From IMG/VR virus record IMGVR_UViG_3300027917_004314: DNA of 64,000 nucleotides. The stretch is one strand, 5' to 3'. The DNA is from a virus (taxonomy: Duplodnaviria > Caudoviricetes). Below the pieces are notes generated by a model. The model worked only from the letters and a program-made list of their open reading frames with translations. It did not search any database and was not told the origin of the DNA. Positions 12,714-62,354 of the stretch are shown here, piece after piece; positions within the stretch are counted from its first letter, which is position 1; each line of letters begins with the position of its first letter. The position numbers and the translations under genes are program-made.

Positions 12714-14000
12714 TTGAAAAAATTTATTTTGGATGCGAATGTTTTGTTACACGATCCAAAAGCCCTCCAGGTGTTCGACGACAATGAGGTCGTCATTCCC
12801 GTCTCAGTACTAGATGAACTCGACAATGCTAAAACAAGACCAGATGAGCGCGGAAGAAACGCCAGGGCAGTAGTGCGCCTTTTGGATAAGTTGAGGGCAA
12901 GTGGATCTTTAAGCGAAGGGGTCAAGTTACATGAATCAATAATTAAAGTGGAATTGAATCACAGGGGTAATGTACCTCGAGGATTGTCGTCTGATAAGAC
13001 AGATAATCGCATTATTAGCACTGCATTAGGGCTTAAAGCGGAGTGCGATTGCCCTGTGATAGTCGTATCTAAAGACATTAATCTGAGAGTAAAATGTGAT
13101 GCCCTCAGCATAGAGGCGCAAGACTATGTTAAAGATAAAATTACTACAGATTTAGAGTCCATTTATAGTGGAGTTAAGACAGTCAGAGTTACTCCGCGTA
13201 CCATAGACCAATTGTACGATGAGGGGTATCTTGAAGGAGATCCTGGGTACGGCAAATGTTATCCCAATCAATTTGTCATACTAAAATCCCATAATAATCA
13301 ATCTGGTATAGCAAGATGTGTAGGATCTAATAGGTTTGAGAAGTTTAACCCACCACAAGAGATTTGGGACATTAGGCCAAGAAACGTGGAGCAAAAGTGC
13401 GCCATGGAACTTTTGATGGATCCCAATATCAAGCTGGTAACTCTCATAGGACGCGCTGGAGCTGGGAAAACATTGCTTGCCGCCGCTGCTGCTCTTCACC
13501 ATATCCTTAATAATTCTGGCACGTTCCAAAGAGCGCTAATTTCTAGGCCAATACAACCTATGGGTAGAGATATAGGTTTCCTTCCTGGCGACCTGGAAGA
13601 CAAACTTAAACCGTGGATGCAACCTATTTACGATAATTTGGAGTTTCTATTAGGCTCTGATTATCAGATGCTTAATGAATATAAGTATAATGGACTTATT
13701 CAGGTTGAACCACTTACCTACATAAGAGGCAGAAGCATACCTAAGTCCTTCATATTATTGGATGAAGCTCAAAATTTAACCGCCAAGGAAATCAAGACCG
13801 TTATTACGCGCATTGGCCAAGATAGTAAGATTGTCATAACTGGGGATATCGAGCAGATTGACAATCCTTACGTAGACTTTGCCGACAACGGACTGACGCA
13901 TGTTGTTGAAAGGTTTAAGGATAAGGCTGTTGCTGGCCACGTAACCTTGCGAAAAGGTGAGAGATCTGAGCTTGCCACCCTTGCCTCTGAAATCCTCTAA
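12714..14000 (+). CDS. phoH: PhoH2/YlaK-type PIN-PhoH ATPase
   Basis: PIN domain FILDANVLLHDP; Walker A GRAGAGKT; LLDEAQN; ITGDIEQID. Confidence 0.93.
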   Translation: MKKFILDANVLLHDPKALQVFDDNEVVIPVSVLDELDNAKTRPDERGRNARAVVRLLDKLRASGSLSEGVKLHESIIKVELNHRGNVPRGLSSDKTDNRIISTALGLKAECDCPVIVVSKDINLRVKCDALSIEAQDYVKDKITTDLESIYSGVKTVRVTPRTIDQLYDEGYLEGDPGYGKCYPNQFVILKSHNNQSGIARCVGSNRFEKFNPPQEIWDIRPRNVEQKCAMELLMDPNIKLVTLIGRAGAGKTLLAAAAALHHILNNSGTFQRALISRPIQPMGRDIGFLPGDLEDKLKPWMQPIYDNLEFLLGSDYQMLNEYKYNGLIQVEPLTYIRGRSIPKSFILLDEAQNLTAKEIKTVITRIGQDSKIVITGDIEQIDNPYVDFADNGLTHVVERFKDKAVAGHVTLRKGERSELATLASEIL

Positions 14001-41450: not shown

Positions 41451-41820
41451 TCAGATTTATCTGACCCAAACGTACTAATATCATTACACTTTTTAAGCCT
41501 AAATACCCCCTCTGCAACTAACCAATATCATTAAAGAAATATACATACAAATATTATACAAGAACCCACCACAAAGGTATCCATAAATATCCAAATAAAG
41601 AGCATATAAAAAAGACATTACATACACACATAAGAGTAATATATACTACCACTACTCCCATTATCACTTACTTATACTAACTATAAGAATAAAATACTAC
41701 AACATTACCCTAAAATAACTCATGATGTGAAATAACATTACCCAAAATAGCTCTATAATATGAAACTCTATACAAAATTCCCTTTTCGGGGGGGGCCGTG
41801 CGCGGTGGGGACACTGTGCT
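41451..41820. other. AT-rich non-coding region and abrupt GC-skew/GC-content junction (candidate origin or genome end)
   Basis: 41641-41700 has 1 G and 15 C; G8 run at 41788-41795; short direct repeats AACATTACCC(T)AAAATA and AATATCATTA. Confidence 0.55.
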
Positions 41821-42054
41821 TTTATGGCACCCGTGAAGAATTTGCAACAAGTGTGAAATTAATTCACTAAACTTAACGTTGCGAAATCATTAAACTTCCA
41901 AGAACGTGAAGCTTTTCCGCTTTCAGGGGTTGAAGGCATCGCTCTGTCTGCGACGGGCGGTGGTTTCCTATGGCAAGGATCGTGCCATCCTTGACCATAG
42001 TATGGGCTTGTTGTGTCTCCTTCTGGATACTAACATCCAACAAGGAGAATCGCA

Positions 42055-49258: not shown

Positions 49259-49608
49259 GGGCTCGACAAGGTTTCGACGTGGGTGATGGAGCATAGGGAT
49301 GCAAGCCGGGGATGGTTACAGCCTCGTTAAAAAGTGACCACACAATAACTTCCAACGAAGTTGAATTCAGAGCTGCTGCATAGCAGTTCCGTTCTACCAG
49401 CTCTCCCGTCTGTGACGGCTGGATAGAGCGACGACGGACAGGCTGGGCGCTAGCAATCTCGGCTAGCTAGCGCTAAGATTCAGTCGGGAAACGAAGTCAA
49501 GAAGCCTGCTGCTGGGCGTCTCGGTGGGTATACAAAACATCAGCTAAGCTTGTAGAATCTCGTGTGAAGCACTTGCGGACCCGGGTTCGATTCCCGGCGA
49601 GTCCACGA
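49259..49608 (+). ncRNA. ssrA: tmRNA, tag peptide (A)SNEVEFRAAA
   Basis: GGGCTCG/CGAGTCC with G3-U70; 5' GAC-AAGG-TTTCGAC; ATAACT resume context; tag ORF 49351-49383; T arm CCGGG-TTCGATT-CCCGG. Confidence 0.92.
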
Positions 49609-50203: not shown

Positions 50204-50245
50204 GGGCGATTAGCTCAGTTGGAAGGGCGATTAGCTCAGTTGGAA
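50204..50245 (+). repeat. exact 21-nt tandem duplication of the tRNA-Val 5' end
   Basis: GGGCGATTAGCTCAGTTGGAA twice. Confidence 0.9.
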
Positions 50246-50300
50246 GAGCAATTGGTTTACACCCAATAGGTCGTAGGTTCGAGCCCTGCATCGCCTACCG
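50225..50300 (+). tRNA. tRNA-Val (TAC)
   Basis: GGGCGAT/ATCGCCT; loop TT-TAC-AC. Confidence 0.88.
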
Positions 50301-50489: not shown

Positions 50490-50628
50490 GCTTGCGTCGT
50501 ACCCTAGCCGGCAGGTTGGGGAAAGCGTCTGGGCTTTGGTTTGGACATTTTCCCCAATCTGCAAGCATAATGCTCTCTGGCCCCCCTGGGTAACAGTGCC
50601 CAGGGGGGCAGTAACAGTGGAGGCTTTT

Positions 50629-51243: not shown

Positions 51244-51753
51244 GCTTCATAAGCTAGAGCGAACAGGAAAATTCTTAGAGTGCTGGTGCCTTTTTTCCGT
51301 TCTTTTGAACTAAAGACGGGTAAGCGCACATTCATCGTGCCGCCGAAGGAGAACGCGAAACAAGAACCTGGCACATACTGAGTTTCTTTTTTGCTTTAGC
51401 TTATGAGGCTTATATCTAGCGCGGTACAGTGCGGCTGAGGTCGCAGACATATGTCTATGCTCTGCCAGCCCTTTGGGCCATGAGAAGAGAGCTATACGGC
51501 TAGGATATAATAGCGGTTGAGGGTAAGTAAGTGTCCCCACAAAGAAGCGTCATTGGCTTTGTACCAGGCGTGAGAATGGTACGCACAACCGTGATGGGGT
51601 AGATCCGCTATATAAATAAACCCTACGAAGAGTTCAAGTGTTCATAGTTGCCCCAGATCAGAGTGGTGCGCCTCTTAAACCGGGTGCGGCAGTGAGCGAT
51701 GGCGGAAGACTCCATGCCGGATGATAGCCTAGACCGGCAATTTTTAGGAGAGT

Positions 51754-52275
51754 GTGATGGCTAAGAGACATTATTTTAGGATGTTGCGAACGGATACACA
51801 GATTGCTTCGATGTGGTCTTTATGTGGTATGGCTGCCGGTTATTCTGATGGAGCTAGTCACGTGGCCACAGATATAGAAAACACAGATTGTAAGACGTGT
51901 ATTCGTATTTATAATAAAGATAAACAAAGTACAGTTCATTATTTAGTTGGTAGATTAGGAGATCCTTCTCTATGTGGGCGTTGGGTAGGATCTGCGCTTC
52001 GAGAACTCGAACCTACTGGCAAAATAACGGAGTTGCCAGAACTGGTTACTTGTAAGACGTGTCTGAAGTATATGGGTGAGTCTACTTCAAACGATCTTCT
52101 ACATGTTATTGAATACTTTAAGAAGCAAAGCGACTCTTTCGATGTAGTACCTGTCGGTGGTGAAGTAGGAGCACTTAAAATAGTCACTGTTGAGGACAAT
52201 ATTGACAACCTTAGAGTGTTAGTAGATTTATTATTAGAGAGAGCACCTGGTTTCTTAAAGCCACCAAAGGAATGA
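51754..52275 (+). CDS. protein with two H..CG..CKTC zinc-binding modules
   Basis: SLCG...DCKTC and SLCG...VTCKTC; paralog of 60275. Confidence 0.72.
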   Translation: MMAKRHYFRMLRTDTQIASMWSLCGMAAGYSDGASHVATDIENTDCKTCIRIYNKDKQSTVHYLVGRLGDPSLCGRWVGSALRELEPTGKITELPELVTCKTCLKYMGESTSNDLLHVIEYFKKQSDSFDVVPVGGEVGALKIVTVEDNIDNLRVLVDLLLERAPGFLKPPKE

Positions 52276-52325
52276 GTGTTGATAGAATTTGGTCTGAAGG
52301 GGTTCGAATCCTCTATCACTCGCCA
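52274..52325 (+). ncRNA. minimal tRNA-like element lacking an anticodon arm
   Basis: GAGTGTT/ATCACTC-G-CCA; small D-like hairpin with TGG loop; AGGGG-TTCGAAT-CCTCT. Confidence 0.6.
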
Positions 52326-52344
52326 ACTTTAGAAGGAGTTTCGC

Positions 52345-52554
52345 ATGAAGTTCTTCGCCGTGCATTACTCTGCTGGTAATAGCATGGACGTTAGGATAAG
52401 TCTTCGACTTAACCTGCATACGTCTATTGCTTCTGACATCGGGATTCTCGTTGCCGGTCAAAACAGGTATCTGCTCTGTACGTGCAGCGACCGTGCGGCG
52501 AAGTCGCTGTTAGGTTTGTTGCAGCGGCATCCTCAGTTTCACATGGTTTCGTAG
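52345..52554 (+). CDS. hypothetical protein
   Basis: AAGGAG RBS. Confidence 0.6.
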   Translation: MKFFAVHYSAGNSMDVRISLRLNLHTSIASDIGILVAGQNRYLLCTCSDRAAKSLLGLLQRHPQFHMVS

Positions 52555-52570
52555 TAACGGAAAGAAGGCA

Positions 52571-52807
52571 ATGAATAGACTGTTTCGTAGAATCGATGAC
52601 TGGTGTCGAGGTGTAGCTGCTCACATCATTGTGGCCCCCATGAGATTGTTCGATAATGGAGAAGCGAACATTCCTACCGAGATAGCGTTCTTGTGGTTTC
52701 TCATGATCGTGTGTCTGCCGGTCACTGGCCCCATATCGCTGCCTTTTTGGGCAGTGGCATATGTGGCTAGCAAGGCTGCCGGGCCGGAAGAAGAGGATGT
52801 GGGATGA
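52571..52807 (+). CDS. hypothetical membrane protein
   Basis: Hydrophobic segment. Confidence 0.6.
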   Translation: MNRLFRRIDDWCRGVAAHIIVAPMRLFDNGEANIPTEIAFLWFLMIVCLPVTGPISLPFWAVAYVASKAAGPEEEDVG

Positions 52808-53019
52808 CTGTAGAGGGTTTGGTCGGTAGGTTAAAAACACAGAAAGTGTATGCGGGACAGGTGCAGAGCGGAGATATCCTGGTAGAAGGCACTCCAACAT
52901 TTATCCAGGCCGTGGCTTTCGTTGCGGATAGGGCGATCTTTGTTTTTGAGGATGGAAGCAGGAGAGTCTACTGGGACTACGAAATGGTCAGTATTGTCGA
53001 CCGTGGTTGTTTTAAGTAA
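52804..53019 (+). CDS. hypothetical protein
   Basis: ATGA overlap. Confidence 0.6.
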   Translation: MTVEGLVGRLKTQKVYAGQVQSGDILVEGTPTFIQAVAFVADRAIFVFEDGSRRVYWDYEMVSIVDRGCFK

Positions 53020-53237
53020 CGCGGCGTGGCAAGCGGCATGAGCACGGGCTGCCCACACGGGGTAGGCTACGGGGCCGGACTCCCACGCCGCCATATATAA
53101 GGAAACGCGGGGCGGCGGCTCGTTTATCAACAAAAAAACGTCGAGCTTGCAGCAATTTGGGCCGCCGCCCCGATTTTCCGGGTTTGCTGCCCGAAAAAAT
53201 TTTCTTACATAGCCGTTAAAACGGTCGAGGGAGTAAA

Positions 53238-53425
53238 GGCTAAGTCTTGCGTTATCTAGGCTGATGATACTTCTTCCCGGTTTGCCCCTATGAAGGGTAA
53301 GCATGGTTGCTGGGAAGTCTTAGGCCGTGGTAGCGAGGTAGAGCGGTACCGGAACTAGGCAACGGTTTGGGCGTGTTTCCGGGACATGCAGCGCCGCGTG
53401 GGTTCGATTCCTACCTTAGCCTCCA
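53238..53425 (+). ncRNA. 188-nt structured RNA closed by a tRNA-like acceptor stem, T arm and CCA
   Basis: GGCTAAG/CTTAGCC-T-CCA; GTGGG-TTCGATT-CCTAC. Confidence 0.62.
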
Positions 53426-53594
53426 AGTACGTCTAGCAGCCGGTAACGATGGGATGGTTGTCCGGTTATCGCCAAAGATCAACTCGTTACAATGGTCGGC
53501 TCGAGCCGCCGAGTTGTAGGACATCGACTGGGCAGATGGCTGCATAAATCTACCCCATGACGTTCAATTTTTCACTTTTAACCAAGGAGGAGAT

Positions 53595-54038
53595 ATGGTA
53601 ACGGCGTACTACGTCATCTGTGTGCTCGCGTCTGTGTTTGTATACACGGTTCTCGGGTTGGTCTTCTACTCGCAAATCGTGGGGTGGTGGTGGGAGTTCG
53701 AGACGGTCATATCTTCAGCCGGCGCGACCTTTCGGCTGAAAAATCCGGCAGCAGGAAGCTATTGTGCTGCTGCTGCCATCTTCTGGCCTTTATCGCTGGC
53801 GGCGGCAATCGTGTCGCTAGTCATGAAAATCGTGATTCACGGCATCATACGCATCGCCGACATGACGTTGGGGCGCTTCTGGCGATTGCTCAAACGCTTG
53901 TTTAGTTCCATTCTAGGGGCGTTAATTCTGCCGCAAAGAGCCGCCTTCCCTGACATAATGGGTACATCGTTGGAGCCACTTGAGCCGGCGACCTGCGACA
54001 TGTGTCGGGAAAAGTTATCCCAGGCCCCGTACCGCTAG
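53595..54038 (+). CDS. hypothetical membrane protein
   Basis: AAGGAGGAG RBS; 2-3 hydrophobic helices. Confidence 0.7.
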   Translation: MVTAYYVICVLASVFVYTVLGLVFYSQIVGWWWEFETVISSAGATFRLKNPAAGSYCAAAAIFWPLSLAAAIVSLVMKIVIHGIIRIADMTLGRFWRLLKRLFSSILGALILPQRAAFPDIMGTSLEPLEPATCDMCREKLSQAPYR

Positions 54039-54046
54039 GAGGTCAC

Positions 54047-54274
54047 ATGGCACAGCAACACAAGCCACTAGCAGCAGTGGTTGCGCTGCTCGATGATGGA
54101 GCGAAGGAAGATAGAATGATCGCCTACTTCCATCATCTCAACAAGACTCGCCGAACCGCCGAAGTAGTGCAGATATTTGAGGAGTTTTTCCAGGGCAGCG
54201 AGCATGTCCTAGAGAACAAGTTCCCGAGTCTGCACGAGCTTCTGCGGAAACATCGCGAGGCAACCCAGACTTAA
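54047..54274 (+). CDS. hypothetical protein
   Basis: AGGAGG RBS, ATG 54047. Confidence 0.65.
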   Translation: MAQQHKPLAAVVALLDDGAKEDRMIAYFHHLNKTRRTAEVVQIFEEFFQGSEHVLENKFPSLHELLRKHREATQT

Positions 54275-54275
54275 C

Positions 54276-54343
54276 GAAACCTATCTGCTGGCGGGGCAGG
54301 GGCTTTTAGCCTGATGGTGGTTCGAATTCACCAGGCTTTGCCA
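54276..54343 (+). ncRNA. anticodon-less tRNA-like element, family copy 3
   Basis: GAAACCT/AGGCTTT-G-CCA; CTGCT-GGCGG-GGCAG; GGGCT-TTT-AGCCT; GGTGG-TTCGAAT-TCACC. Confidence 0.75.
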
Positions 54344-54366
54344 GGAGAATAACCAAGGAGACTACT

Positions 54367-54789
54367 ATGGCTGTTGATAAAAGAAGGGTTGCAATGCCTG
54401 ACTGCTGGTCTCCGGTACGGAAGTTGGCCAGCGAGTTGGCAGATGGTTGCCAGCTTCAGAAGGGTGCCATTAGCTTGAAGCGAGATGGAGATTGCAAGTA
54501 TACGCTCGCTCTTCGTAGTGGGCAGAAGCCTTTCACTTGTCCAGTGAAAGCGGTCTTCATGTTCATCTACTACGCCGGTGGCCCCGAGTCTATCGAGGTT
54601 ATCGAGTACAAGGAACCGGAGCATAATTGGCGGGCTTATATCAACACTAGTGGGGCGTATGAAGGTGGAGATGATGTTGTCGTTTGCCCCCAGTGTTTGA
54701 AGGAGGACCCGTCATTGGAGGCTGATATCTATTGCTCTACCAGAGAGCCTTGTCTGAAGCATCAAGACCCGGCCAAGAACGGCCGGTAA
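54367..54789 (+). CDS. Cys-containing hypothetical protein
   Basis: AAGGAG RBS. Confidence 0.7.
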   Translation: MAVDKRRVAMPDCWSPVRKLASELADGCQLQKGAISLKRDGDCKYTLALRSGQKPFTCPVKAVFMFIYYAGGPESIEVIEYKEPEHNWRAYINTSGAYEGGDDVVVCPQCLKEDPSLEADIYCSTREPCLKHQDPAKNGR

Positions 54790-54950
54790 GATCTCATGCC
54801 GCATGGCAGCGTTAACGTTAGGTCTGGATGCGTTGTTGCCATGCGTGAAGTCGTATAGGTTTGATGAGGACCTTTGGCTTCGGCTACCTCCCTCGCCTAG
54901 CGTGCGGTCAGTTTGACGAGGCGGAATAATAATCCAGATCACACTGACGT

Positions 54951-55064
54951 ACTATCGTAGTTTAGCGGAAAAGCGACCAAGGCCTACCGCATAACTTCTT
55001 AGAGGTGCTTGCGGATTCATAGGTTGGGGTAGACGAGAAGTTCGACTCTTCTCCGATAGTGCCA
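54951..55064 (+). ncRNA. tRNA-like RNA with long extended anticodon arm
   Basis: ACTATCG/CGATAGT-G-CCA; GTTT-AGCGGAA-AAGC; GAGAAG-TTCGACT-CTTCTC. Confidence 0.7.
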
Positions 55065-55075
55065 AGGAGGTCAAA

Positions 55076-55435
55076 ATGGCAAAGTATCATTATTCCTCTT
55101 ATTGGGGAACATGGAGCCGTAGGCTCTCAAGTGACCACGAGAGCGGGCCATACGTGGAAGTAAACCTCACTCCAATCAAGGATGCGAACTATGCTTCTAG
55201 GTGGGACGATGAGGTAATACCAATCATCATTCGCACTCATTGCACGGCTTCAACGCCGAGAGACATCGATACCAACATCCTGCCGCTTGCAGTTGGTGAG
55301 GACATGGTAAAATTTCTTGGAGTTGAGCTGACCAAGAAGCTGTTGGATTACGACTTTCTCGCCGACATCGATCCTGAACTTCTCAGGACCAAGATGACGG
55401 GCGGAGGCGTGCCATTCCGCGACTTGGTGAAGTGA
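55076..55435 (+). CDS. hypothetical protein
   Basis: AGGAGG RBS. Confidence 0.7.
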   Translation: MAKYHYSSYWGTWSRRLSSDHESGPYVEVNLTPIKDANYASRWDDEVIPIIIRTHCTASTPRDIDTNILPLAVGEDMVKFLGVELTKKLLDYDFLADIDPELLRTKMTGGGVPFRDLVK

Positions 55436-55467
55436 AGTGCTACACGAGATAACCAAGGAGGCCAACA

Positions 55468-55908
55468 ATGCCTTTTAGAGTTGAGGCGAGAGAGAGATAC
55501 ATGAATGGTCGCCTCGTTGTCCAGATTTACGAGGACGACGATGGGCCGTTCTCCGGAATGCCGTATTGTACGCTGAGCACCAATGTACCTGGAGTGGAGC
55601 TGGAAGACGACGAGTTCGTACTGAACCATGACCTTAACGGTCCTTTGTTCGACGAACTCAGGACCGAGATCCTGGCGAAGTGGTGTGAGGACACCGGTAA
55701 GCGGTGTAGTTACGGGTTCGTTCGCGACCAGCCGATTTGGAGGGTCGCGTTAGACGATACTAAGGTATCAGCTGATAAACTCAAGGCAGTTCCTTTTCCT
55801 GAATGCGGCGGCAAATGTGCAGCCGTCGAATACCTCGGTGTGGGCGAGTGTGAGGCTGTTTGTCCACATAAGTTTGATGGCAATGGTGATCCTATAGCCG
55901 ATTTTTAA
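55468..55908 (+). CDS. hypothetical protein, N-terminal half DUF4313-like
   Basis: PYCTLSTNV..ELEDDEFV....TGKRCSYGF pattern; AAGGAGG RBS. Confidence 0.55.
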   Translation: MPFRVEARERYMNGRLVVQIYEDDDGPFSGMPYCTLSTNVPGVELEDDEFVLNHDLNGPLFDELRTEILAKWCEDTGKRCSYGFVRDQPIWRVALDDTKVSADKLKAVPFPECGGKCAAVEYLGVGECEAVCPHKFDGNGDPIADF

Positions 55909-56107
55909 AGATAGGTTTACGGTGACAATAGACAGGTAAAAGATCTCGATGGCAAGACTTGGGGCGTGTGCAACTTTATCACCTGCAAAGCTTGCGACGG
56001 CGATGATGTCTTGGACCGCTGGGTTCAGGCCAACGAGGAAGCCCACCAGAGATTTTGGTGGCTATTATGATCACGCTAAGGTGACGCAATGAGTAAAGGG
56101 ACTGAAG

Positions 56108-56227
56108 ATGAGAAAAATCGTTAAGCTTATTCGCAGGCTGTGGTTTTGTGATCCACCTCCCTTTGCTCGCTGCGAGATTTGTGGCGAGGACATTGAGGAG
56201 TGCAACACAAGAGATCATATGCGTTGA
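56108..56227 (+). CDS. small Cys-containing peptide (39 aa)
   Basis: CEIC motif; stops 1 nt before tRNA-like copy 4. Confidence 0.45.
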   Translation: MRKIVKLIRRLWFCDPPPFARCEICGEDIEECNTRDHMR

Positions 56228-56228
56228 T

Positions 56229-56297
56229 GGGACCTATCTGCTAGTGGAGCAGGAGTCTTTATGACTCGAGGCTGGTTCGAATCCAGTAGGTTTCACT
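56229..56297 (+). ncRNA. anticodon-less tRNA-like element, family copy 4
   Basis: GGGACCT/AGGTTTC; CTGCT-AGTGG-AGCAG; GAGTC-TTTAT-GACTC; GCTGG-TTCGAAT-CCAGT. Confidence 0.8.
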
Positions 56298-56313
56298 GAC
56301 TGAGGAGGATACA

Positions 56314-57084
56314 ATGGAGAAGACAGTGGACACTGCGTTCGTTTTCATTTGCTGCTTTGGCTTCAAATCTCACTACTGCCCATCGGATCTCGCTGATGGC
56401 TTGGTAGAGGACTTGGAGTCCAGGGAAGCTGACATCAGGTTCATCGAGAGCACGGACAAGGGCTACATCGACCTGCCCGGGATGTGCATGGCTGACAGGC
56501 CGATGGAGGAGGTGGTGCTTGGGGAGTTCAGACTTTCCATTCCGTCCCAGGACTTCGCATCCATGCTGAGTCGACTCAAGGCTGCTCCGCTAAGGAAATT
56601 TGCGGACGGCAGCGAGTACTTCAAACTTCACGGCTTCCATCAGTGCCTCGTGGTGAGCCCGGAGCAGCGCGATGAGCTTATCCGCATCATGGACGAGATG
56701 GTGGCCGACGCCGAGAAGCGAGCCGATGAGGCGGTTGTGGAGTTTGGCAAGCGCATGGAGAAAGTCGTCGAGAATCGTAATGTGTGCATCCTCGGCGACT
56801 CGGAAAGGAAGACGGTTGTACACCACGATGGCGGTGAGGAGTATCCCGAGGGAGTCACGATGGGGGATGGATCGGTCATGAAATATCGACCTCTCGCCAC
56901 CATCAAGTGCATGTACTGTGGTAGGCTTGCTACCATGGCGAAGTTTCAGGACGGCTCTGTCGGCGGCATCCATGAGACTCCAGAGTGCGCCGAGTTCGCG
57001 GCCATGGACGTGTTGGTCTTTTTCCGCGAGAATCGGAAGAAGATGGAACAAGAGGTTGACGAGGGTAAGTTCAAGCCCAATTAG
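56314..57084 (+). CDS. hypothetical protein
   Basis: GAGGAGG RBS; GC3-rich. Confidence 0.78.
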   Translation: MEKTVDTAFVFICCFGFKSHYCPSDLADGLVEDLESREADIRFIESTDKGYIDLPGMCMADRPMEEVVLGEFRLSIPSQDFASMLSRLKAAPLRKFADGSEYFKLHGFHQCLVVSPEQRDELIRIMDEMVADAEKRADEAVVEFGKRMEKVVENRNVCILGDSERKTVVHHDGGEEYPEGVTMGDGSVMKYRPLATIKCMYCGRLATMAKFQDGSVGGIHETPECAEFAAMDVLVFFRENRKKMEQEVDEGKFKPN

Positions 57085-57315
57085 GAGGCTACGTTGCGCA
57101 GTGGTAGGCACAAAAAGGTAATAGAGGCACAACCGTTTGGAGTCGGCAAATGGCTGTTATTCTTGGAATGCGGCCATGAGCTGATTCTCCCAAGGCGCAA
57201 AAGGAAGAGTGCGCCGAGGACGGCGGCATGCAAAGAGTGCCGCAGAAAGCCCTGAGTTGTTGAGTGCCGCTTGTACTTTAGCGAGTGCAAGCGATACTAA
57301 ACAAAGGAGGCAGAG

Positions 57316-57582
57316 ATGAAGGTAGCGTTTTGCGACAAGTGTAAGAAGCGGCTGCCAGGTGAGTTGTGGCATGGCCCACCGTGTCAGTGTCCTGGCAGCG
57401 AGAAGATCACCCAGATGTGGGAGAAAATCGGCGAAGCAACACTCGGAATTCCGGCCAGCGAGGACAACGATCTCACGCCTCTCCAGGGTTTAAGCGTGCT
57501 GGCGTACGTGGAGCGGAAGAGGAGAGACCCCGAGGAGTGGTGGAGGGAGCAGTACCTCATCGCCCAGATCAACAAGATGTGA
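57316..57582 (+). CDS. hypothetical zinc-finger protein
   Basis: AAGGAGG RBS; CDKC...CQC. Confidence 0.68.
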   Translation: MKVAFCDKCKKRLPGELWHGPPCQCPGSEKITQMWEKIGEATLGIPASEDNDLTPLQGLSVLAYVERKRRDPEEWWREQYLIAQINKM

Positions 57583-57589
57583 GGTCCAG

Positions 57590-58009
57590 ATGCGAAATAA
57601 AGACATTCGTGGTTCAGTTTGCTACGACTGGAGAGACCGGATCGAACTGGTGATCGACAACGCTGGGCGGTGGCATCTGTGTCGTATTGTCCATATGGAC
57701 CTCGTGCCAATCGAGGACGTAACGGACAAGCTAGACGAGCTAAACCAGGAGCGAGTCTCCGTTGCTTGGCAGTACGGCCAGATTGACAATCACATCAAAG
57801 CTATGAGGGCTCGCGAGAACTTCCTGGGGTGCCTGAGAGAGCTTGAGGCTGAAGCCTTCTGGCAGAAGGAGAGACGTAATTTCGGCAATGCTGCCGAGTA
57901 CCAGAGGCTGGTCAAGAAATACGAGTCCGTCGCGGACGCTGTATGGACACGAGAGTGGTATGAGGGCTTGGAGATCATGCAATCGGTACTGGCGCGACTA
58001 GAGCCGTAG
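57590..58009 (+). CDS. hypothetical protein
   Basis: GAGGT RBS. Confidence 0.68.
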   Translation: MRNKDIRGSVCYDWRDRIELVIDNAGRWHLCRIVHMDLVPIEDVTDKLDELNQERVSVAWQYGQIDNHIKAMRARENFLGCLRELEAEAFWQKERRNFGNAAEYQRLVKKYESVADAVWTREWYEGLEIMQSVLARLEP

Positions 58010-58019
58010 GAGGCGAAAG

Positions 58020-58274
58020 ATGAAGCTATATTACGTGAGGCACCAAGCAGAGTGTGTCAGATTTGATACGGTGTCAATCGACTCTGGAGTCGCAAAGCGT
58101 TCGTGGGCCATATGTGGTAGAGATGCTGCTGGCAATCCTTGTATCATTAAAGGAGAGGGTAGCATTGCCGGCATCGCGAGTTTTCGCGAGACGATGTCTG
58201 TACATGAGGTGCCACGCGAGCAGTACATCAGGGCGTTGGAGGCGGCGACCAGATTGGCTCCGCCCGCGAGCTAG
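58020..58274 (+). CDS. hypothetical protein
   Basis: AGGAGG RBS. Confidence 0.65.
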   Translation: MKLYYVRHQAECVRFDTVSIDSGVAKRSWAICGRDAAGNPCIIKGEGSIAGIASFRETMSVHEVPREQYIRALEAATRLAPPAS

Positions 58275-58285
58275 GAGACATAGAC

Positions 58286-58903
58286 TTGTCTAAAAGATAT
58301 CGCAGACACTTATACCTGGCCCCTCCTAGCAATTTTTGTTTTTCGTACTGTGGAATATCTATTTCTCCATCTTGGAGATTGTCGTCAAGAAACTGCGAGT
58401 GGTGTAAGTTATGCTTAAAGTACGCGACTGCAAAGAATTCCTTTGCGGCGACCACGTTGAATGTAGCAGGGCGATCGATGTTTATAGTTGCCAAGACGAA
58501 CATATATTATTTGAATCCATCTAAATTCTTGAATGCTGCTACTCAGTTAGATACCATTGCACATGGTCAGATGGTATACAGAGGTATTCCATATCCATCG
58601 AGTAGTTGTGGTTTCCCATCTGCCGTTGCGCGATTGGGTGGCTTTATTATTATAACCACAGATGGCCGACACGGACGAGGCGATTGGTTTGAATTCAGAC
58701 AATGGATGTACGAGATCTTTTGGTCCATGCTTACAGCGGATGCTGACAGCCTAGAGTGTAAATGTGCTTGGGAAGTATTAACGAGTCGCGAGAACAGCGA
58801 CCCTGGCGATGCATTAGTTGGGTTGATGCACGTTGGCAATACTGGACCGATAACAGACCATTTTAAGGAATGGGCGAAAGCATTTGGTCATACTATATTA
58901 TGA
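58286..58903 (+). CDS. hypothetical protein with N-terminal H..CG..CxxC module
   Basis: AGGAG RBS, TTG start. Confidence 0.65.
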   Translation: MSKRYRRHLYLAPPSNFCFSYCGISISPSWRLSSRNCEWCKLCLKYATAKNSFAATTLNVAGRSMFIVAKTNIYYLNPSKFLNAATQLDTIAHGQMVYRGIPYPSSSCGFPSAVARLGGFIIITTDGRHGRGDWFEFRQWMYEIFWSMLTADADSLECKCAWEVLTSRENSDPGDALVGLMHVGNTGPITDHFKEWAKAFGHTIL

Positions 58904-58961
58904 TTGTTGAGTGCCTCGTGGGTTCTGAGGAACCCAGGCGGGACCTAACAAAGGAGGAGAG

Positions 58962-59204
58962 ATGTCCAAGACCAGAAGGCAGCGTATCGAGGCGAAGCTG
59001 ACCAGTGCGAAGGAGAACTTGAAGAGCCAGGTCGAGGTGATGGCGAAGAAAAACCGCAAGCAGGCCGGGATGCTCGCTGACCGGAACGGGACCCTCCGGG
59101 TCCTCGTTTCCATGCTCACTCCCGAGCAGCACGCCGAGATCGAGAAGCTCGATGACGAGAAGCACGCGGAGGTCAAGAAGCTGGTGAAGGAGTTCATGCC
59201 GTAG
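58962..59204 (+). CDS. helical hypothetical protein, GC3-rich
   Basis: AAGGAGGAG RBS. Confidence 0.72.
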   Translation: MSKTRRQRIEAKLTSAKENLKSQVEVMAKKNRKQAGMLADRNGTLRVLVSMLTPEQHAEIEKLDDEKHAEVKKLVKEFMP

Positions 59205-59211
59205 CGGGGCA

Positions 59212-59284
59212 GGGGATGTAGCTCAGACGGCAGAGCCCCACGATAACGTGGAGGGCGTAGGTTCGACTCCTACCATCCCCTCTA
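59212..59284 (+). ncRNA. tRNA-like RNA with a 4-nt anticodon loop (degenerate Ile-GAT-like)
   Basis: GGGGATG/CATCCCC; canonical D and T arms; CCACG-ATAA-CGTGG. Confidence 0.75.
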
Positions 59285-59309
59285 AGCAGGCGACTAGACG
59301 AAAGGTCTG

Positions 59310-60248
59310 GTGGAAAGGAAGAACGTGATGCCTTCTCCTAGGCTTGAAAAAGGTGGAGTATCAGATAAATCAGACTGGGTGGTCAATTGCAACACGCACA
59401 AGTGTCCCTTTGGGTGTGTCTATTGTGCCAGCAATGGTCTCAAAAATATCAGGGGAAAGAAGTTCAGTTGGGATGAGGGGAAGGTAACAATTCGCCGTTT
59501 AGATAGACATTGTGGCACAAACATATCCGAAAGTCTTTGGGAAATCAGGCCGGGGGACGTAGTTCAAGTTCCCAGCTCTCATGACATAACCTCATGCAAG
59601 ATGGCCATGAAACTGGTAAAGCCAATCAGAGAGATTTTGGAGCGCGACGGCATAGTAGTGGTCCACTCGAAAATGAGTCTCAGCGTAGCTAAGATAATAG
59701 GATCTGAATTATACAAGTACCGGAAGAAAAACCTAGTAATTCAGATCACTATCGGAACAACTAACGCGAAGCTGATGTCTGCTGTTGAACCAAAGGCTCC
59801 AGGGTTGCAGGAAAGGCTTGGGTCTCTACAGTTTCTTTACAAGCTCGGGTTTAGGACTGGTGTGGCGTGCACGCCAGCGCTAGATGTCGATGTAAAGAGT
59901 ACGCACAGAATGGTTTCACCGTATACCAAAATGCGGTTTCATATAGGATCGATTAGGCTGGTGGGGAACGGCGCACTCGGCGACCGCGCGATGCATGCTT
60001 TTAATCGTGCATATGGTTGCCGGGATGCCAATGTCGCCAACGTACATCCGGAGAGTTGTAAGGCAAGAAAAATACTATCCGATTGGCTGTACAGTTACGG
60101 CGACCTCTTCGACGCCAATTGGGCCGAACGGGTGATTGGCTTTGCAAAGCGGCGTAAGAAGGTTGTGTGCGAACGAGACGTATATGACCTTACCAAGGCT
60201 TGGCACTTCTTTGTGGCACCACGGTATACGCTGTTTGATTTTCTATAG
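59310..60248 (+). CDS. radical SAM protein, spore photoproduct lyase (SplB/COG1533)-like
   Basis: CPFGCVYC; VEPKAP...RL..L..L...GFRTGV..TP. Confidence 0.75.
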   Translation: MERKNVMPSPRLEKGGVSDKSDWVVNCNTHKCPFGCVYCASNGLKNIRGKKFSWDEGKVTIRRLDRHCGTNISESLWEIRPGDVVQVPSSHDITSCKMAMKLVKPIREILERDGIVVVHSKMSLSVAKIIGSELYKYRKKNLVIQITIGTTNAKLMSAVEPKAPGLQERLGSLQFLYKLGFRTGVACTPALDVDVKSTHRMVSPYTKMRFHIGSIRLVGNGALGDRAMHAFNRAYGCRDANVANVHPESCKARKILSDWLYSYGDLFDANWAERVIGFAKRRKKVVCERDVYDLTKAWHFFVAPRYTLFDFL

Positions 60249-60274
60249 ATTTTGCTTAGTGCTGGAGAGAAGTA

Positions 60275-60742
60275 ATGGCAAACAAGAAGGTTCATTGGCG
60301 AGCGATGCCACGGCGATTTGGAAGAGAGGGCTCGCCTGATACTATGTGTGGTCACTACGGTACTACTACCAACATACTGAAGCGAGTAACGTGCAAGACC
60401 TGTATTAGGATTCTAAAAAAGGCTGGGAAAGAGATTCCAGGTCCTATGCCAGACCTTCATTTATATAGCCCATCGTTTAGCCTTAGACATGGGGCAAACG
60501 GCAAGGCTCAGCTTGTCATCACGACTGTCCCAAAGGATCCTGACGATCTGCGCCCCTTTATGGATTTGGTCCTAGAAAGGGGATACGATTACATACTGCC
60601 GCCGGCAGTTGCAAAAGAAGTAAATAAAGAGACGGCCAAGAAGAAGGTAGCCAAGAAGAAAGTGGTTAAGAGGAAGAATGTAGGGAAAAGAGCCATAGGG
60701 GGTAGAAGGAGAAGGACATTTGTGCCAGTCGTTTATCGCTGA
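60275..60742 (+). CDS. H..CG..CKTC zinc-module protein with basic tail, paralog of 51754
   Basis: VHW...TMCG...VTCKTC; DDLRPFMDLVLERG resembles DNLRVLVDLLLERA. Confidence 0.72.
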   Translation: MANKKVHWRAMPRRFGREGSPDTMCGHYGTTTNILKRVTCKTCIRILKKAGKEIPGPMPDLHLYSPSFSLRHGANGKAQLVITTVPKDPDDLRPFMDLVLERGYDYILPPAVAKEVNKETAKKKVAKKKVVKRKNVGKRAIGGRRRRTFVPVVYR

Positions 60743-60819
60743 CATGTCCAAGTTCCCGTTCGGCGGCCAGTCGATTTTGTGTCGCTACTTTCTTGTATCC
60801 CATGAAAAAGGAGAGTGCA

Positions 60820-61047
60820 ATGATTCCAAATACGCATTACTATGAGACGCCAGACGGCGAGTTTACCTACGTCACGAAGCGTCTGTTTCTCGCATACCAT
60901 TCCGAGGAAGAGTGGAAGGTTTTCTCGAAGTGGATGACGGGGCAGACCGTCGGGCTAGTAGGTGGTCAGCAGGCGATCTACTCATGGGACTACGAGAGGT
61001 GGGCTCGTCAGGGAAAGCAGACCGAGCAAGGACCGGATTGGGATTAA
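60820..61047 (+). CDS. hypothetical protein
   Basis: AAGGAG RBS, ATG 60820. Confidence 0.68.
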   Translation: MIPNTHYYETPDGEFTYVTKRLFLAYHSEEEWKVFSKWMTGQTVGLVGGQQAIYSWDYERWARQGKQTEQGPDWD

Positions 61048-61072
61048 AGAGGCTTGAGAAACAATACAAGTT

Positions 61073-61133
61073 GGCCGCTGAACGTTAAGTGGTAACGTGT
61101 CAGTAATATCGGTTCGATTCCGAACGGCGGCCC
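61073..61133 (+). ncRNA. minimal tRNA-like element lacking an anticodon arm
   Basis: GGCCGCTG/CGGCGGCC; CGTTA-AGTGG-TAACG; TCGG-TTCGATT-CCGA. Confidence 0.68.
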
Positions 61134-61152: not shown

Positions 61153-61326
61153 ATGGCGCGAAGGAAGAGGAGCTTCATCAGCTGGCTGATTTTGATCGTG
61201 GTCCTCACCATGGCGGTTGTGGGTGGTTACCACCTCTACAACAGCGACACGGGGCAGGCGACCTCGCGAGTGGTGAAGGAGGCGGTGAAGGCCGGTCACA
61301 ACCAGGCAAAGAAGGAGATCGACTAG
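61153..61326 (+). CDS. small single-pass membrane protein (57 aa)
   Basis: AAGGAGG RBS; basic N-terminus plus TM helix. Confidence 0.65.
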   Translation: MARRKRSFISWLILIVVLTMAVVGGYHLYNSDTGQATSRVVKEAVKAGHNQAKKEID

Positions 61327-62282: not shown

Positions 62283-62354
62283 GGAACCTATCCGACAATG
62301 GGTCGGGGCATATAGAGTATGCTGAAGAGGGTTCAACTCCCTCAGGTTTCGCTA
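62283..62354 (+). ncRNA. anticodon-less tRNA-like element, family copy 5
   Basis: GGAACCT/AGGTTTC; CCGAC-AATGG-GTCGG; GGCATA-TAGAG-TATGCT; GAGGG-TTCAACT-CCCTC. Confidence 0.8.

Follow-up and report, generated by a model that had tools for sequence, protein, structure and literature searches.

tRNA-shaped elements with a reduced or missing anticodon arm in a marine-sediment phage contig

Can the body of a tRNA gene be kept by a phage after its anticodon has been lost? This question is raised by three short elements, here called A, B and C, in a 64,000-nt stretch of DNA (the window, to which all coordinates without a prefix refer) that belongs to a phage-like contig of 460,921 bp found in a marine sediment metagenome (IMG/VR record IMGVR_UViG_3300027917_004314). 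The original prediction described B as a near-perfect tRNA with only ATAA in the anticodon loop, and A and C as mini-tRNAs without an anticodon arm. It took the three as a progressive loss of that arm, and as independent derivations of the mimic function ascribed to a further set of tRNA-like elements, the GRRACCT family. The three elements are as follows.

52274..52325, plus strand: element A, a perfect T arm with acceptor 3' strand and GCCA (sequence, energies, simulation)
59212..59281, plus strand: element B, a tRNA-shaped RNA gene with an Ala(GGC)-like body (ARAGORN, Rfam tRNA model, fold, orthologue at L036:9689-9759)
61073..61133, plus strand: element C, a tRNA-like three-way junction without anticodon arm (minimum free energy (MFE) fold, Rfam tRNA alignment, simulation)

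A canonical anticodon loop of 7 nt, with U33, a 3-nt anticodon and a 5-bp stem, is found in none of them; B has a 4-nt loop, C a 9-nt linker and A a 1-nt linker. All three retain the GGTTCRANYCC motif of the T arm (GGTTCGAATCC in A, GGTTCGACTCC in B and GGTTCGATTCC in C), the G53:C61 pair and a GG in the D-like loop. Against the Rfam tRNA model (RF00005, gathering threshold 29 bits), B scored 56 bits (E 2e-9) and C 21.6 bits (E 0.01, in a local search), the latter below the gathering score, and A had no match even at E 10.

Element B and its orthologue in a relative phage

Element B folds into a complete cloverleaf in which all four stems are Watson-Crick paired (fold z = -2.15). Its anticodon stem, 59238-59242/59247-59251 (CCACG/CGUGG), closes on the 4-nt loop AUAA at 59243-59246, and the alignment to the Rfam tRNA model contains a clean 3-nt deletion inside the anticodon loop. 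ARAGORN labels the gene 'tRNA-???' with a 2-nt 'anticodon'. The tRNA with the ATAA loop had been placed at 59212-59284 and was confirmed, with its true end 3 nt earlier, at 59281.

A search pattern built from the 5' half common to B and its orthologue retrieved phage tRNA-Ala and tRNA-Val genes. The best match was a phage tRNA-Ala(GGC) at L023:5427-5502, with 77% identity overall and 67% once the part that the pattern fixes is set aside. The anticodon arm of this tRNA reads GCACG-AUGGCAU-CGUGU against CCACG-AU---AA-CGUGG in B. The two genes agree in the anticodon stem (CACGAU...CGUG) and in A32-U33, with which the loop starts, but B lacks the three anticodon bases and carries G3:C70 rather than G3:U70 and U73 rather than A73. 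Alanine identity (the G3:U70 pair and A73) is likewise incomplete in the orthologue of B, which has G3:C70 and A73. B thus looks like an Ala(GGC)-type tRNA from which the anticodon triplet has been removed. Because the alanine identity pair is lost, position 73 is U and the anticodon bases are gone, B can neither be charged as tRNA-Ala nor decode.

The lineage to which the window belongs is rare. A megablast search of 11-12-kb stretches against 50,697 phage records gave no match, and neither did tblastn with a radical-SAM-like protein and a 529-aa open reading frame (ORF), leaving the lineage without a match in INPHARED or IMG/VR. Searches for related loci with the radical-SAM-like protein or its alignment returned nothing in IMG/VR or JGI contigs, and the DnaB of the window has its best match in Bacillus phage G, at only 23% identity. 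Relatives were reached through single genes: L003 and L004, which are 3-kb JGI contigs, via the radical-SAM-like gene (61% amino acid identity), and L036, a contig of 46.6 kb, via a gene on L003. Synteny between L036 and the window extends from the topoisomerase IB gene into the tRNA-like region, with heavy rearrangement. Two genes next to B anchor the comparison.

58962..59204, plus strand: 80-aa ORF directly 5' of B (BLASTP 48% identity over 80 aa, E 4e-22, against L036:9375-9632)
59328..60248, plus strand: 306-aa protein with a CxxxCxxC (radical-SAM-like; CPFGCVYC) motif (L003 768-1681, L036 10371-10583)

In L036 the homologue of the 80-aa ORF is followed by a tRNA-like element at L036:9689-9759, identical to L003:85-157. 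With the homologous ORF upstream and the same radical-SAM-like gene downstream, this element is the positional orthologue of B. When the two were aligned, neither lacked any of the 16 pairs in the acceptor, D and T stems; four of these pairs have changed on both sides in a compensatory way (two in the acceptor, one in the D and one in the T stem) and one has gone from G-C to G-U. In its anticodon stem the orthologue has lost four of five pairs. Identity is ~75% outside the anticodon region and ~31% within it, which is the random level; the ORF adjoining B shows 55, 64 and 54% identity at codon positions 1, 2 and 3 between window and relative. The conserved body with its compensated pairs, set against the drifted anticodon arm, indicates that B is held by selection for shape only. 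Judged from this alignment, the tRNA body of B has been under selection since the two phages diverged, with the anticodon arm drifting freely, and B is very likely functional. The check that had been proposed, conservation of pairing in homologues, was therefore passed by B, its acceptor, D and T helices being kept and its anticodon arm melted. The claim that the intact pairing is not random decay is supported for this element only, on the compensatory changes in the three helices of the orthologue.

The site that B occupies is also of note. The radical-SAM-like gene is always preceded by a tRNA-shaped element or by a gap big enough for one, the gaps measuring 184 nt in relative P0002 (77% identity) and 117 nt in P0003 (54%). 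Directly 5' of this gene the window has B, which does not decode, and the relative has a canonical tRNA-Lys; in either case the same conserved hairpin and ribosome-binding site (RBS) come next. The hairpin was compared between 59285-59330 of the window and L003 705-770.

59293..59311, plus strand: 7-bp hairpin between B and the RBS of the next gene, kept in the relative 3' of tRNA-Lys (fold)

The presence of B and of tRNA-Lys in one and the same slot suggests that any tRNA shape may serve there. As for the protein itself, no Pfam or PDB match was found, it has only three relatives among 5.8 billion proteins, and its structure model (predicted local distance difference test score, pLDDT, 47.6) was too poor for a fold search.

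Elements C and A

Element C consists of an 8-bp acceptor (GGCCGCUG), a D hairpin (61082-61098), the 9-nt linker and a T arm (61108-61124), and encodes no CCA. Its MFE structure is the very fold that had been described, with a 6-bp D hairpin that has GG in its loop, a 4-bp T stem plus an A-A mismatch, and a single-stranded linker (fold z = -2.40); the prediction that C keeps acceptor, D and T arms without an anticodon arm was borne out. In the Rfam tRNA alignment the acceptor, D and T parts are aligned and the 18 positions of the anticodon arm are reduced to 6 nt. When the T arm and 3' strand were fixed in a simulation and the upstream sequence was random, closure of the C type together with a D-like hairpin arose by chance in 0.06% of trials. 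As controls, ~60 phage tRNAs from five unrelated phage tRNA clusters were used, and short full closure was seen in none of them.

The acceptor of C is of the tRNA-His type. G61073 pairs with C61132 as G-1:C73, the Rfam alignment begins at 61074 and places C61132 at the discriminator position, and phage tRNA-His genes in L020 and L023 have the same 8-bp acceptor architecture. This acceptor hints at a tRNA-His as the possible parent of C. The octamer CGGCGGCC, which is the acceptor 3' strand of C, occurs again in the preceding gap at 60756-60770, after a TTCC-like stretch, and may be a fragment of another C-type element. The gene that follows C has homologues in L003 and L004.

61153..61326, plus strand: 57-aa ORF, 19 nt 3' of C (homologue in L003/L004, 67% identity, E 2e-26)

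C itself is absent at the syntenic junction of L003 and L004, where the homologue of the 57-aa ORF follows a different gene after a gap of 13 nt. C is a well-formed member of the set and, like A, may be a young relic.

In element A the T arm reads AGGGG/UUCGAAU/CCUCU, and the 3' strand of the acceptor, G73 and a CCA present in the DNA come after it. The original prediction of a mini-tRNA was correct as to the letters, the T arm and the GCCA at this site, but not as to a sound tRNA fold: only six of seven acceptor pairs form (with a U-U mismatch), the tRNA model gives no match, and a plain hairpin (-12.7 kcal/mol) is more stable than the tRNA-like fold (-8.7 kcal/mol; fold z = -0.5). The D-like stem has 4 bp, including one G-U. 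The configuration arose by chance in ~0.5% of simulated cases, which makes A suggestive and not secure. Both of its neighbours are orphans.

51757..52275, plus strand: 172-aa orphan ORF, ~40% GC, whose TGA (52273-52275) overlaps the first two bases of A
52345..52554, plus strand: 69-aa orphan ORF, 19 nt 3' of A, with its ATG at 52345

A and C each end 19 nt before the next ATG, as had been noted, and the 5' end of A overlaps the upstream stop codon. Among 5.8 billion proteins no homologue of either ORF flanking A was found. The element lies in a segment of ~3 kb (~50.3-53.2 kb) of which only ~325 nt are matched in L036, and blastn of A and C against the relative gave nothing meaningful. Its 5' heptamer, GAGTGTT, is present again 60 nt upstream; given this duplication and the other tRNA scars in the region, A may be a product of rearrangement. 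A is the weakest of the three elements and may be only the 3' fragment of a tRNA. Its 3' end with CCA had no match in GTDB (one genome per species), and without CCA the only tRNA genes among the GTDB matches were those of Treponema tRNA-Arg(CCG), a weak lead to a possible parent.

Two other ways of reading A were tried and rejected. As the 3' exon of an intron-split tRNA it would need an intron and a 5' half, and neither a group I intron match (Rfam E-value scan) nor a credible 5' half at 51278 was found; as a capped RNA of 112 nt starting from the second GAGTGTT it has a fold z of only -0.7. The 513 nt without called genes at 51244-51756, 5' of the ORF that ends in A, had no Rfam match, including group I introns, at E 10. 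A 155-aa ORF had only distant matches, and L025, a marine-sediment contig, carries no tRNA-like element; at L025 600-1093 there is a 494-nt non-coding stretch with two tandem structured units of ~105 nt (ATGGATGGGGA...GACGAAAGACTAGGAGAG...) without tRNA features.

The tRNA-like region and the GRRACCT family

The window falls into two parts. Positions 1-42,000 have ~38% GC and carry large genes, including PrkA/SpoVR, ribonucleotide reductase, DnaB and topoisomerase IB. Positions 42,000-64,000 have ~52% GC and carry only small plus-strand ORFs of unassigned function, together with a transfer-messenger RNA (tmRNA) and many tRNA or tRNA-like genes. At ~41,800-42,000 the GC content steps from ~37% to ~55% with the coding strand unchanged, and this boundary is also the start of the tRNA-like region. 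The tmRNA (49259-49608) scored 165 bits in Rfam. Between 42.7 and 62.4 kb the plus strand carries 19 copies of the T-loop motif GGTTCRAWTCC (one mismatch tolerated), a strong enrichment, as ~4 would be expected in both strands of the entire window together. ARAGORN made 12 calls besides the tmRNA and Rfam gave nine tRNA matches; only part of the motif sites are recognised by either program, and several of the calls are themselves non-canonical. Between 49.5 and 63.5 kb, most intergenic gaps of more than 60 nt house a tRNA or tRNA-like element, 14-26 nt ahead of the next start codon.

In the non-canonical elements examined from a T-arm/acceptor scan of the window, the change was always in the anticodon arm; the scan is blind to elements whose T or acceptor arm is broken, and the D arm was checked in only some of those examined. 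D arms played no part in finding A, B, C and the GRRACCT members, and in all of these they are paired and carry GG, in A only weakly.

GRRACCT members have the acceptor GRRACCU/AGGUUUC and a D arm of the family type, and A, B and C do not fit this description; their acceptors are GAGUGUU in A, GGGGAUG in B and, in C, the sequence given above. Stem identity between B and GRRACCT members is 6-9 of 24 positions, with no blastn match. No sequence relationship links A, B and C with one another or with GRRACCT members, which supports the claim of independent derivation; a mimic function common to all of them would be an inference. Across A, B and C, the proposed progressive loss amounts to a row of shapes among unrelated elements and would be an evolutionary series only by conjecture. 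A real series in time is given by two orthologous pairs. One is B with its orthologue and the other the GRRACCT element at 62283 with L003:2857-2923 (also in L004), which have the same acceptor and T arm, a compensatory change in the D stem, and an anticodon arm reduced from 15 to ~8 nt.

In the relative, L036 1-10583 holds at least 10 T-arm-plus-acceptor elements in 10.5 kb, of which only the tRNA-Lys reaches the Rfam tRNA threshold; several of the GRRACCT members there have anticodon stems capped by loops of 3-4 nt, and the gene order is heavily shuffled against that of the window. The GRRACCT T-arm/acceptor pattern had no match in IMG/VR. Among metagenome contigs it had 15 matches, none with the AGGTTTC acceptor strand, and several of these read like protein-coding sequence. 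Paralogues were surveyed within the 64-kb window of the contig.

Other features of the window were recorded. At 50204-50299 the first 21-22 nt of a tRNA-Val(UAC) gene (GGGCGATTAGCTCAGTTGGAAG) are duplicated in tandem directly 5' of the gene, a slippage or recombination scar in the tRNA cluster. The intergenic stretch 50490-50628 forms two very long near-perfect hairpins (-73.6 kcal/mol, z ~-7.9 against mononucleotide shuffles) and has a short piece in common with L036:4466-4498. A gene-free stretch of 231 nt at 57085-57315 contains several strong hairpins (z ~-4.7) and had no Rfam match. In the AT-rich half, 12714-14000 encodes a fusion of a PIN domain with a PhoH-like ATPase, possibly an RNA helicase-nuclease.

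Possible functions and known systems

What has been established for these elements is the loss of decoding, their structures and, for B, selection on shape but not on the anticodon arm. The reading that we favour, with a little less than even confidence, is that A, B and C would be substrates of RNase P and RNase Z recognised by shape alone, and would act as processing signals in polycistronic RNA. They would be tRNA-derived RNA genes that no longer decode and that keep the parts read by the processing machinery, namely the acceptor/T stack of 12-13 layers, the elbow between the D loop and the T loop (GG...UUCRA) and the G1:C72 end. Stack, elbow and end are the features read by RNase P, RNase Z and the CCA-adding enzyme. 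In 49.5-63.5 kb, sites resembling promoters or terminators are no more frequent than chance predicts and all genes lie on the plus strand, so the elements would be excised from a polycistronic RNA, in this case that of a long one-directional array of small early-type genes. Host RNase P would cut the 5' side, and RNase Z or RNase E the 3' side, much as with plant-mitochondrial t-elements and the mascRNA of MALAT1. An acceptor stem with a T stem-loop suffices as a substrate of RNase P, which also naturally cuts phage RNAs and mRNAs (PMC11143913). We infer from the DNA-encoded fold alone that the elements are transcribed and cleaved and that cleavage is of benefit. Among the sequencing runs listed as containing this DNA were near-identical DNA runs and no RNA run.

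Several points weigh against this reading. Selection on shape only fits any partner that reads the tRNA body, and not RNase P and RNase Z in particular. A and C have no homologues and stand in blocks absent from the relative, and the tRNA-like fold of A, 4 kcal/mol worse than the alternative hairpin, is unseen by the tRNA model. A cut by RNase P at the 5' end of A would split the TGA (U|GA) and leave an mRNA without a stop codon, as also happens with the plant nad6 and ccmC t-elements (PMC1920247). Finally, the canonical tRNAs of the window show equally compact spacing before the RBS, and this spacing may reflect the packing of the genome and not function.

The idea that A and C, and B in principle too, are tRNA genes in decay or leftovers of recombination without a function of their own is rather unlikely for the set as a whole, and the evidence differs from element to element. 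In its form for A, this explanation supposes a tRNA 3' end (T arm, acceptor strand and CCA) that met a fortuitous upstream complement after a rearrangement. It draws on the absence of both A and C from the relative and their position among orphan or swapped genes, on the heavy rearrangement of the region between the two phages, with tRNA-gene scars such as the 21-nt duplication at 50204, on the finding that a short closure of six in seven pairs adjoins ~6% of T arms by chance, and on the features of A itself (no match to the tRNA model, an unremarkable fold energy and the GAGTGTT duplicated 60 nt upstream). For B it is rejected, since the body is conserved above the neighbouring coding sequence, four pairs are compensated and the anticodon region is randomised. 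For C, the chance of ~0.06% for closure with a 6-bp D hairpin means that a deletion would have had to take the anticodon arm out cleanly. The restriction of change to the anticodon arm in the elements examined also speaks against simple decay, within a scan that would miss broken T or acceptor arms.

Selection on shape only would equally be expected of decoys that titrate a protein reading the tRNA body and not the anticodon, such as a tRNA-targeting defence nuclease of the host, a toxin that modifies the acceptor end, or a nucleotidyltransferase of the CCA-adding family from phage or host. Many copies of several independent origins in an early-type region are in keeping with this, as are the large tRNA sets that huge phages carry. 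However, most known anti-phage tRNA nucleases cut the anticodon loop, which is missing in A and C and drifting in the lineage of B. No partner protein was identified among the genes of the window, and a single copy each of A, B and C offers little for a stoichiometric sponge; we regard the decoy explanation as unlikely. Highly improbable is a use as charged, non-decoding carriers, in which C would be histidylated after CCA addition and serve outside the ribosome or drain the pool of charged tRNA. C does keep the anticodon-independent histidine identity set G-1:C73, like the tRNA-His genes in L020 and L023, and an 8-bp histidine microhelix is a substrate of HisRS. However, the extra G:C pair has a chance of about 1 in 16, C encodes no CCA, no aminoacyl-transferase gene lies nearby, and the missing alanine identity pair of B counts against charging as a common theme.

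A wider proposal, put forward tentatively as a possibility, is that this marine-sediment megaphage lineage maintains, by purifying selection, a repertoire of tRNA-shaped RNAs of several independent origins, among them the Ala-type B, the His-type C and the GRRACCT family. Constraint would act only on the acceptor, T and D arms, so that the anticodon arm could become smaller or disappear. Such RNAs would be a class not yet described in phages, one that uses the tRNA-processing or tRNA-binding machinery of the host beyond decoding. If so, the non-decoding use could be the punctuation of operons or the neutralising of a defence that reads the tRNA body. The presence of tRNA genes in phages is commonly attributed to codon supply or to evasion of anticodon nucleases; here the tRNA body, in B, was kept after the loss of both anticodon and amino-acid identity. 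If the elements are processing signals, tRNA punctuation, known from mitochondria, would also organise early transcripts of large phages. Annotation pipelines would miss or mislabel such genes, as ARAGORN does when it gives B no identity and passes over A and C. B and its orthologue are a concrete and cheap object for in-vitro cleavage assays.

Several known RNAs resemble these elements in part. The mascRNA of MALAT1 and the menRNA of MEN-beta are elements of vertebrate nuclear long non-coding RNAs, in which a cut by RNase P defines where the upstream RNA ends on its 3' side, and the small RNA is completed by RNase Z and the CCA enzyme. They share with the present elements the acceptor, the T arm, a D-like region and a reduced anticodon arm. 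Scores against the mascRNA-menRNA model (RF01684) are 16.1 bits for C (E 0.36) and 11.3 bits for A (E 6.4), well below its gathering score of 42.5, so that neither counts as a member. In bacteria and phages, the tmRNA (RF00023) and the Y-RNA-like YrlA RNAs (RF02553; Chen et al., 2014, PMC4201824) lack an anticodon loop and combine an acceptor and T arm with an elbow of the D type. In these the module caps a large domain, a tag reading frame or a Ro-binding helix, whereas A, B and C have nothing at that position; no Rfam match to YrlA was found at the three sites. The stable RNAs C and D of phage T4 lie in a tRNA cluster, do not decode and are processed by the tRNA machinery, and we know of no function for them. 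The M3 RNA of phi80 and the C4 RNA of P1/P7 are listed as RNase P substrates (PMC11143913). All of these phage RNAs are non-decoding like A, B and C, but their architectures differ and there is no similarity in sequence.

A literature search found no published description of tRNA-like genes without an anticodon arm in phages. As far as the sequences can tell, what appears new here is an orthologous pair with decay specific to one arm in a megaphage, an Ala-type parent that can still be traced although the identity pair is lost, and an armless form of the His type.

The closest known parallel is provided by the t-elements of plant mitochondria, which carry the GGTTCRANYCC motif of the T arm in a non-canonical cloverleaf, lie within polycistronic RNA and are bounded by the sites at which RNase P and RNase Z generate mRNA ends, the cleavage having been mapped experimentally (Forner et al., 2007, PMC1920247). 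A, B and C show the same motif in a non-canonical cloverleaf. Some t-elements extend into reading frames and so deprive the mRNA of its stop codon, which A would do as well. In contrast to those elements of a plant organelle with their mapped cleavage, the present ones belong to a phage, are known from DNA and have no relationship to them in sequence, and B and C keep the D arm and the elbow. By this analogy, A, B and C would work like t-elements without being members of that class.

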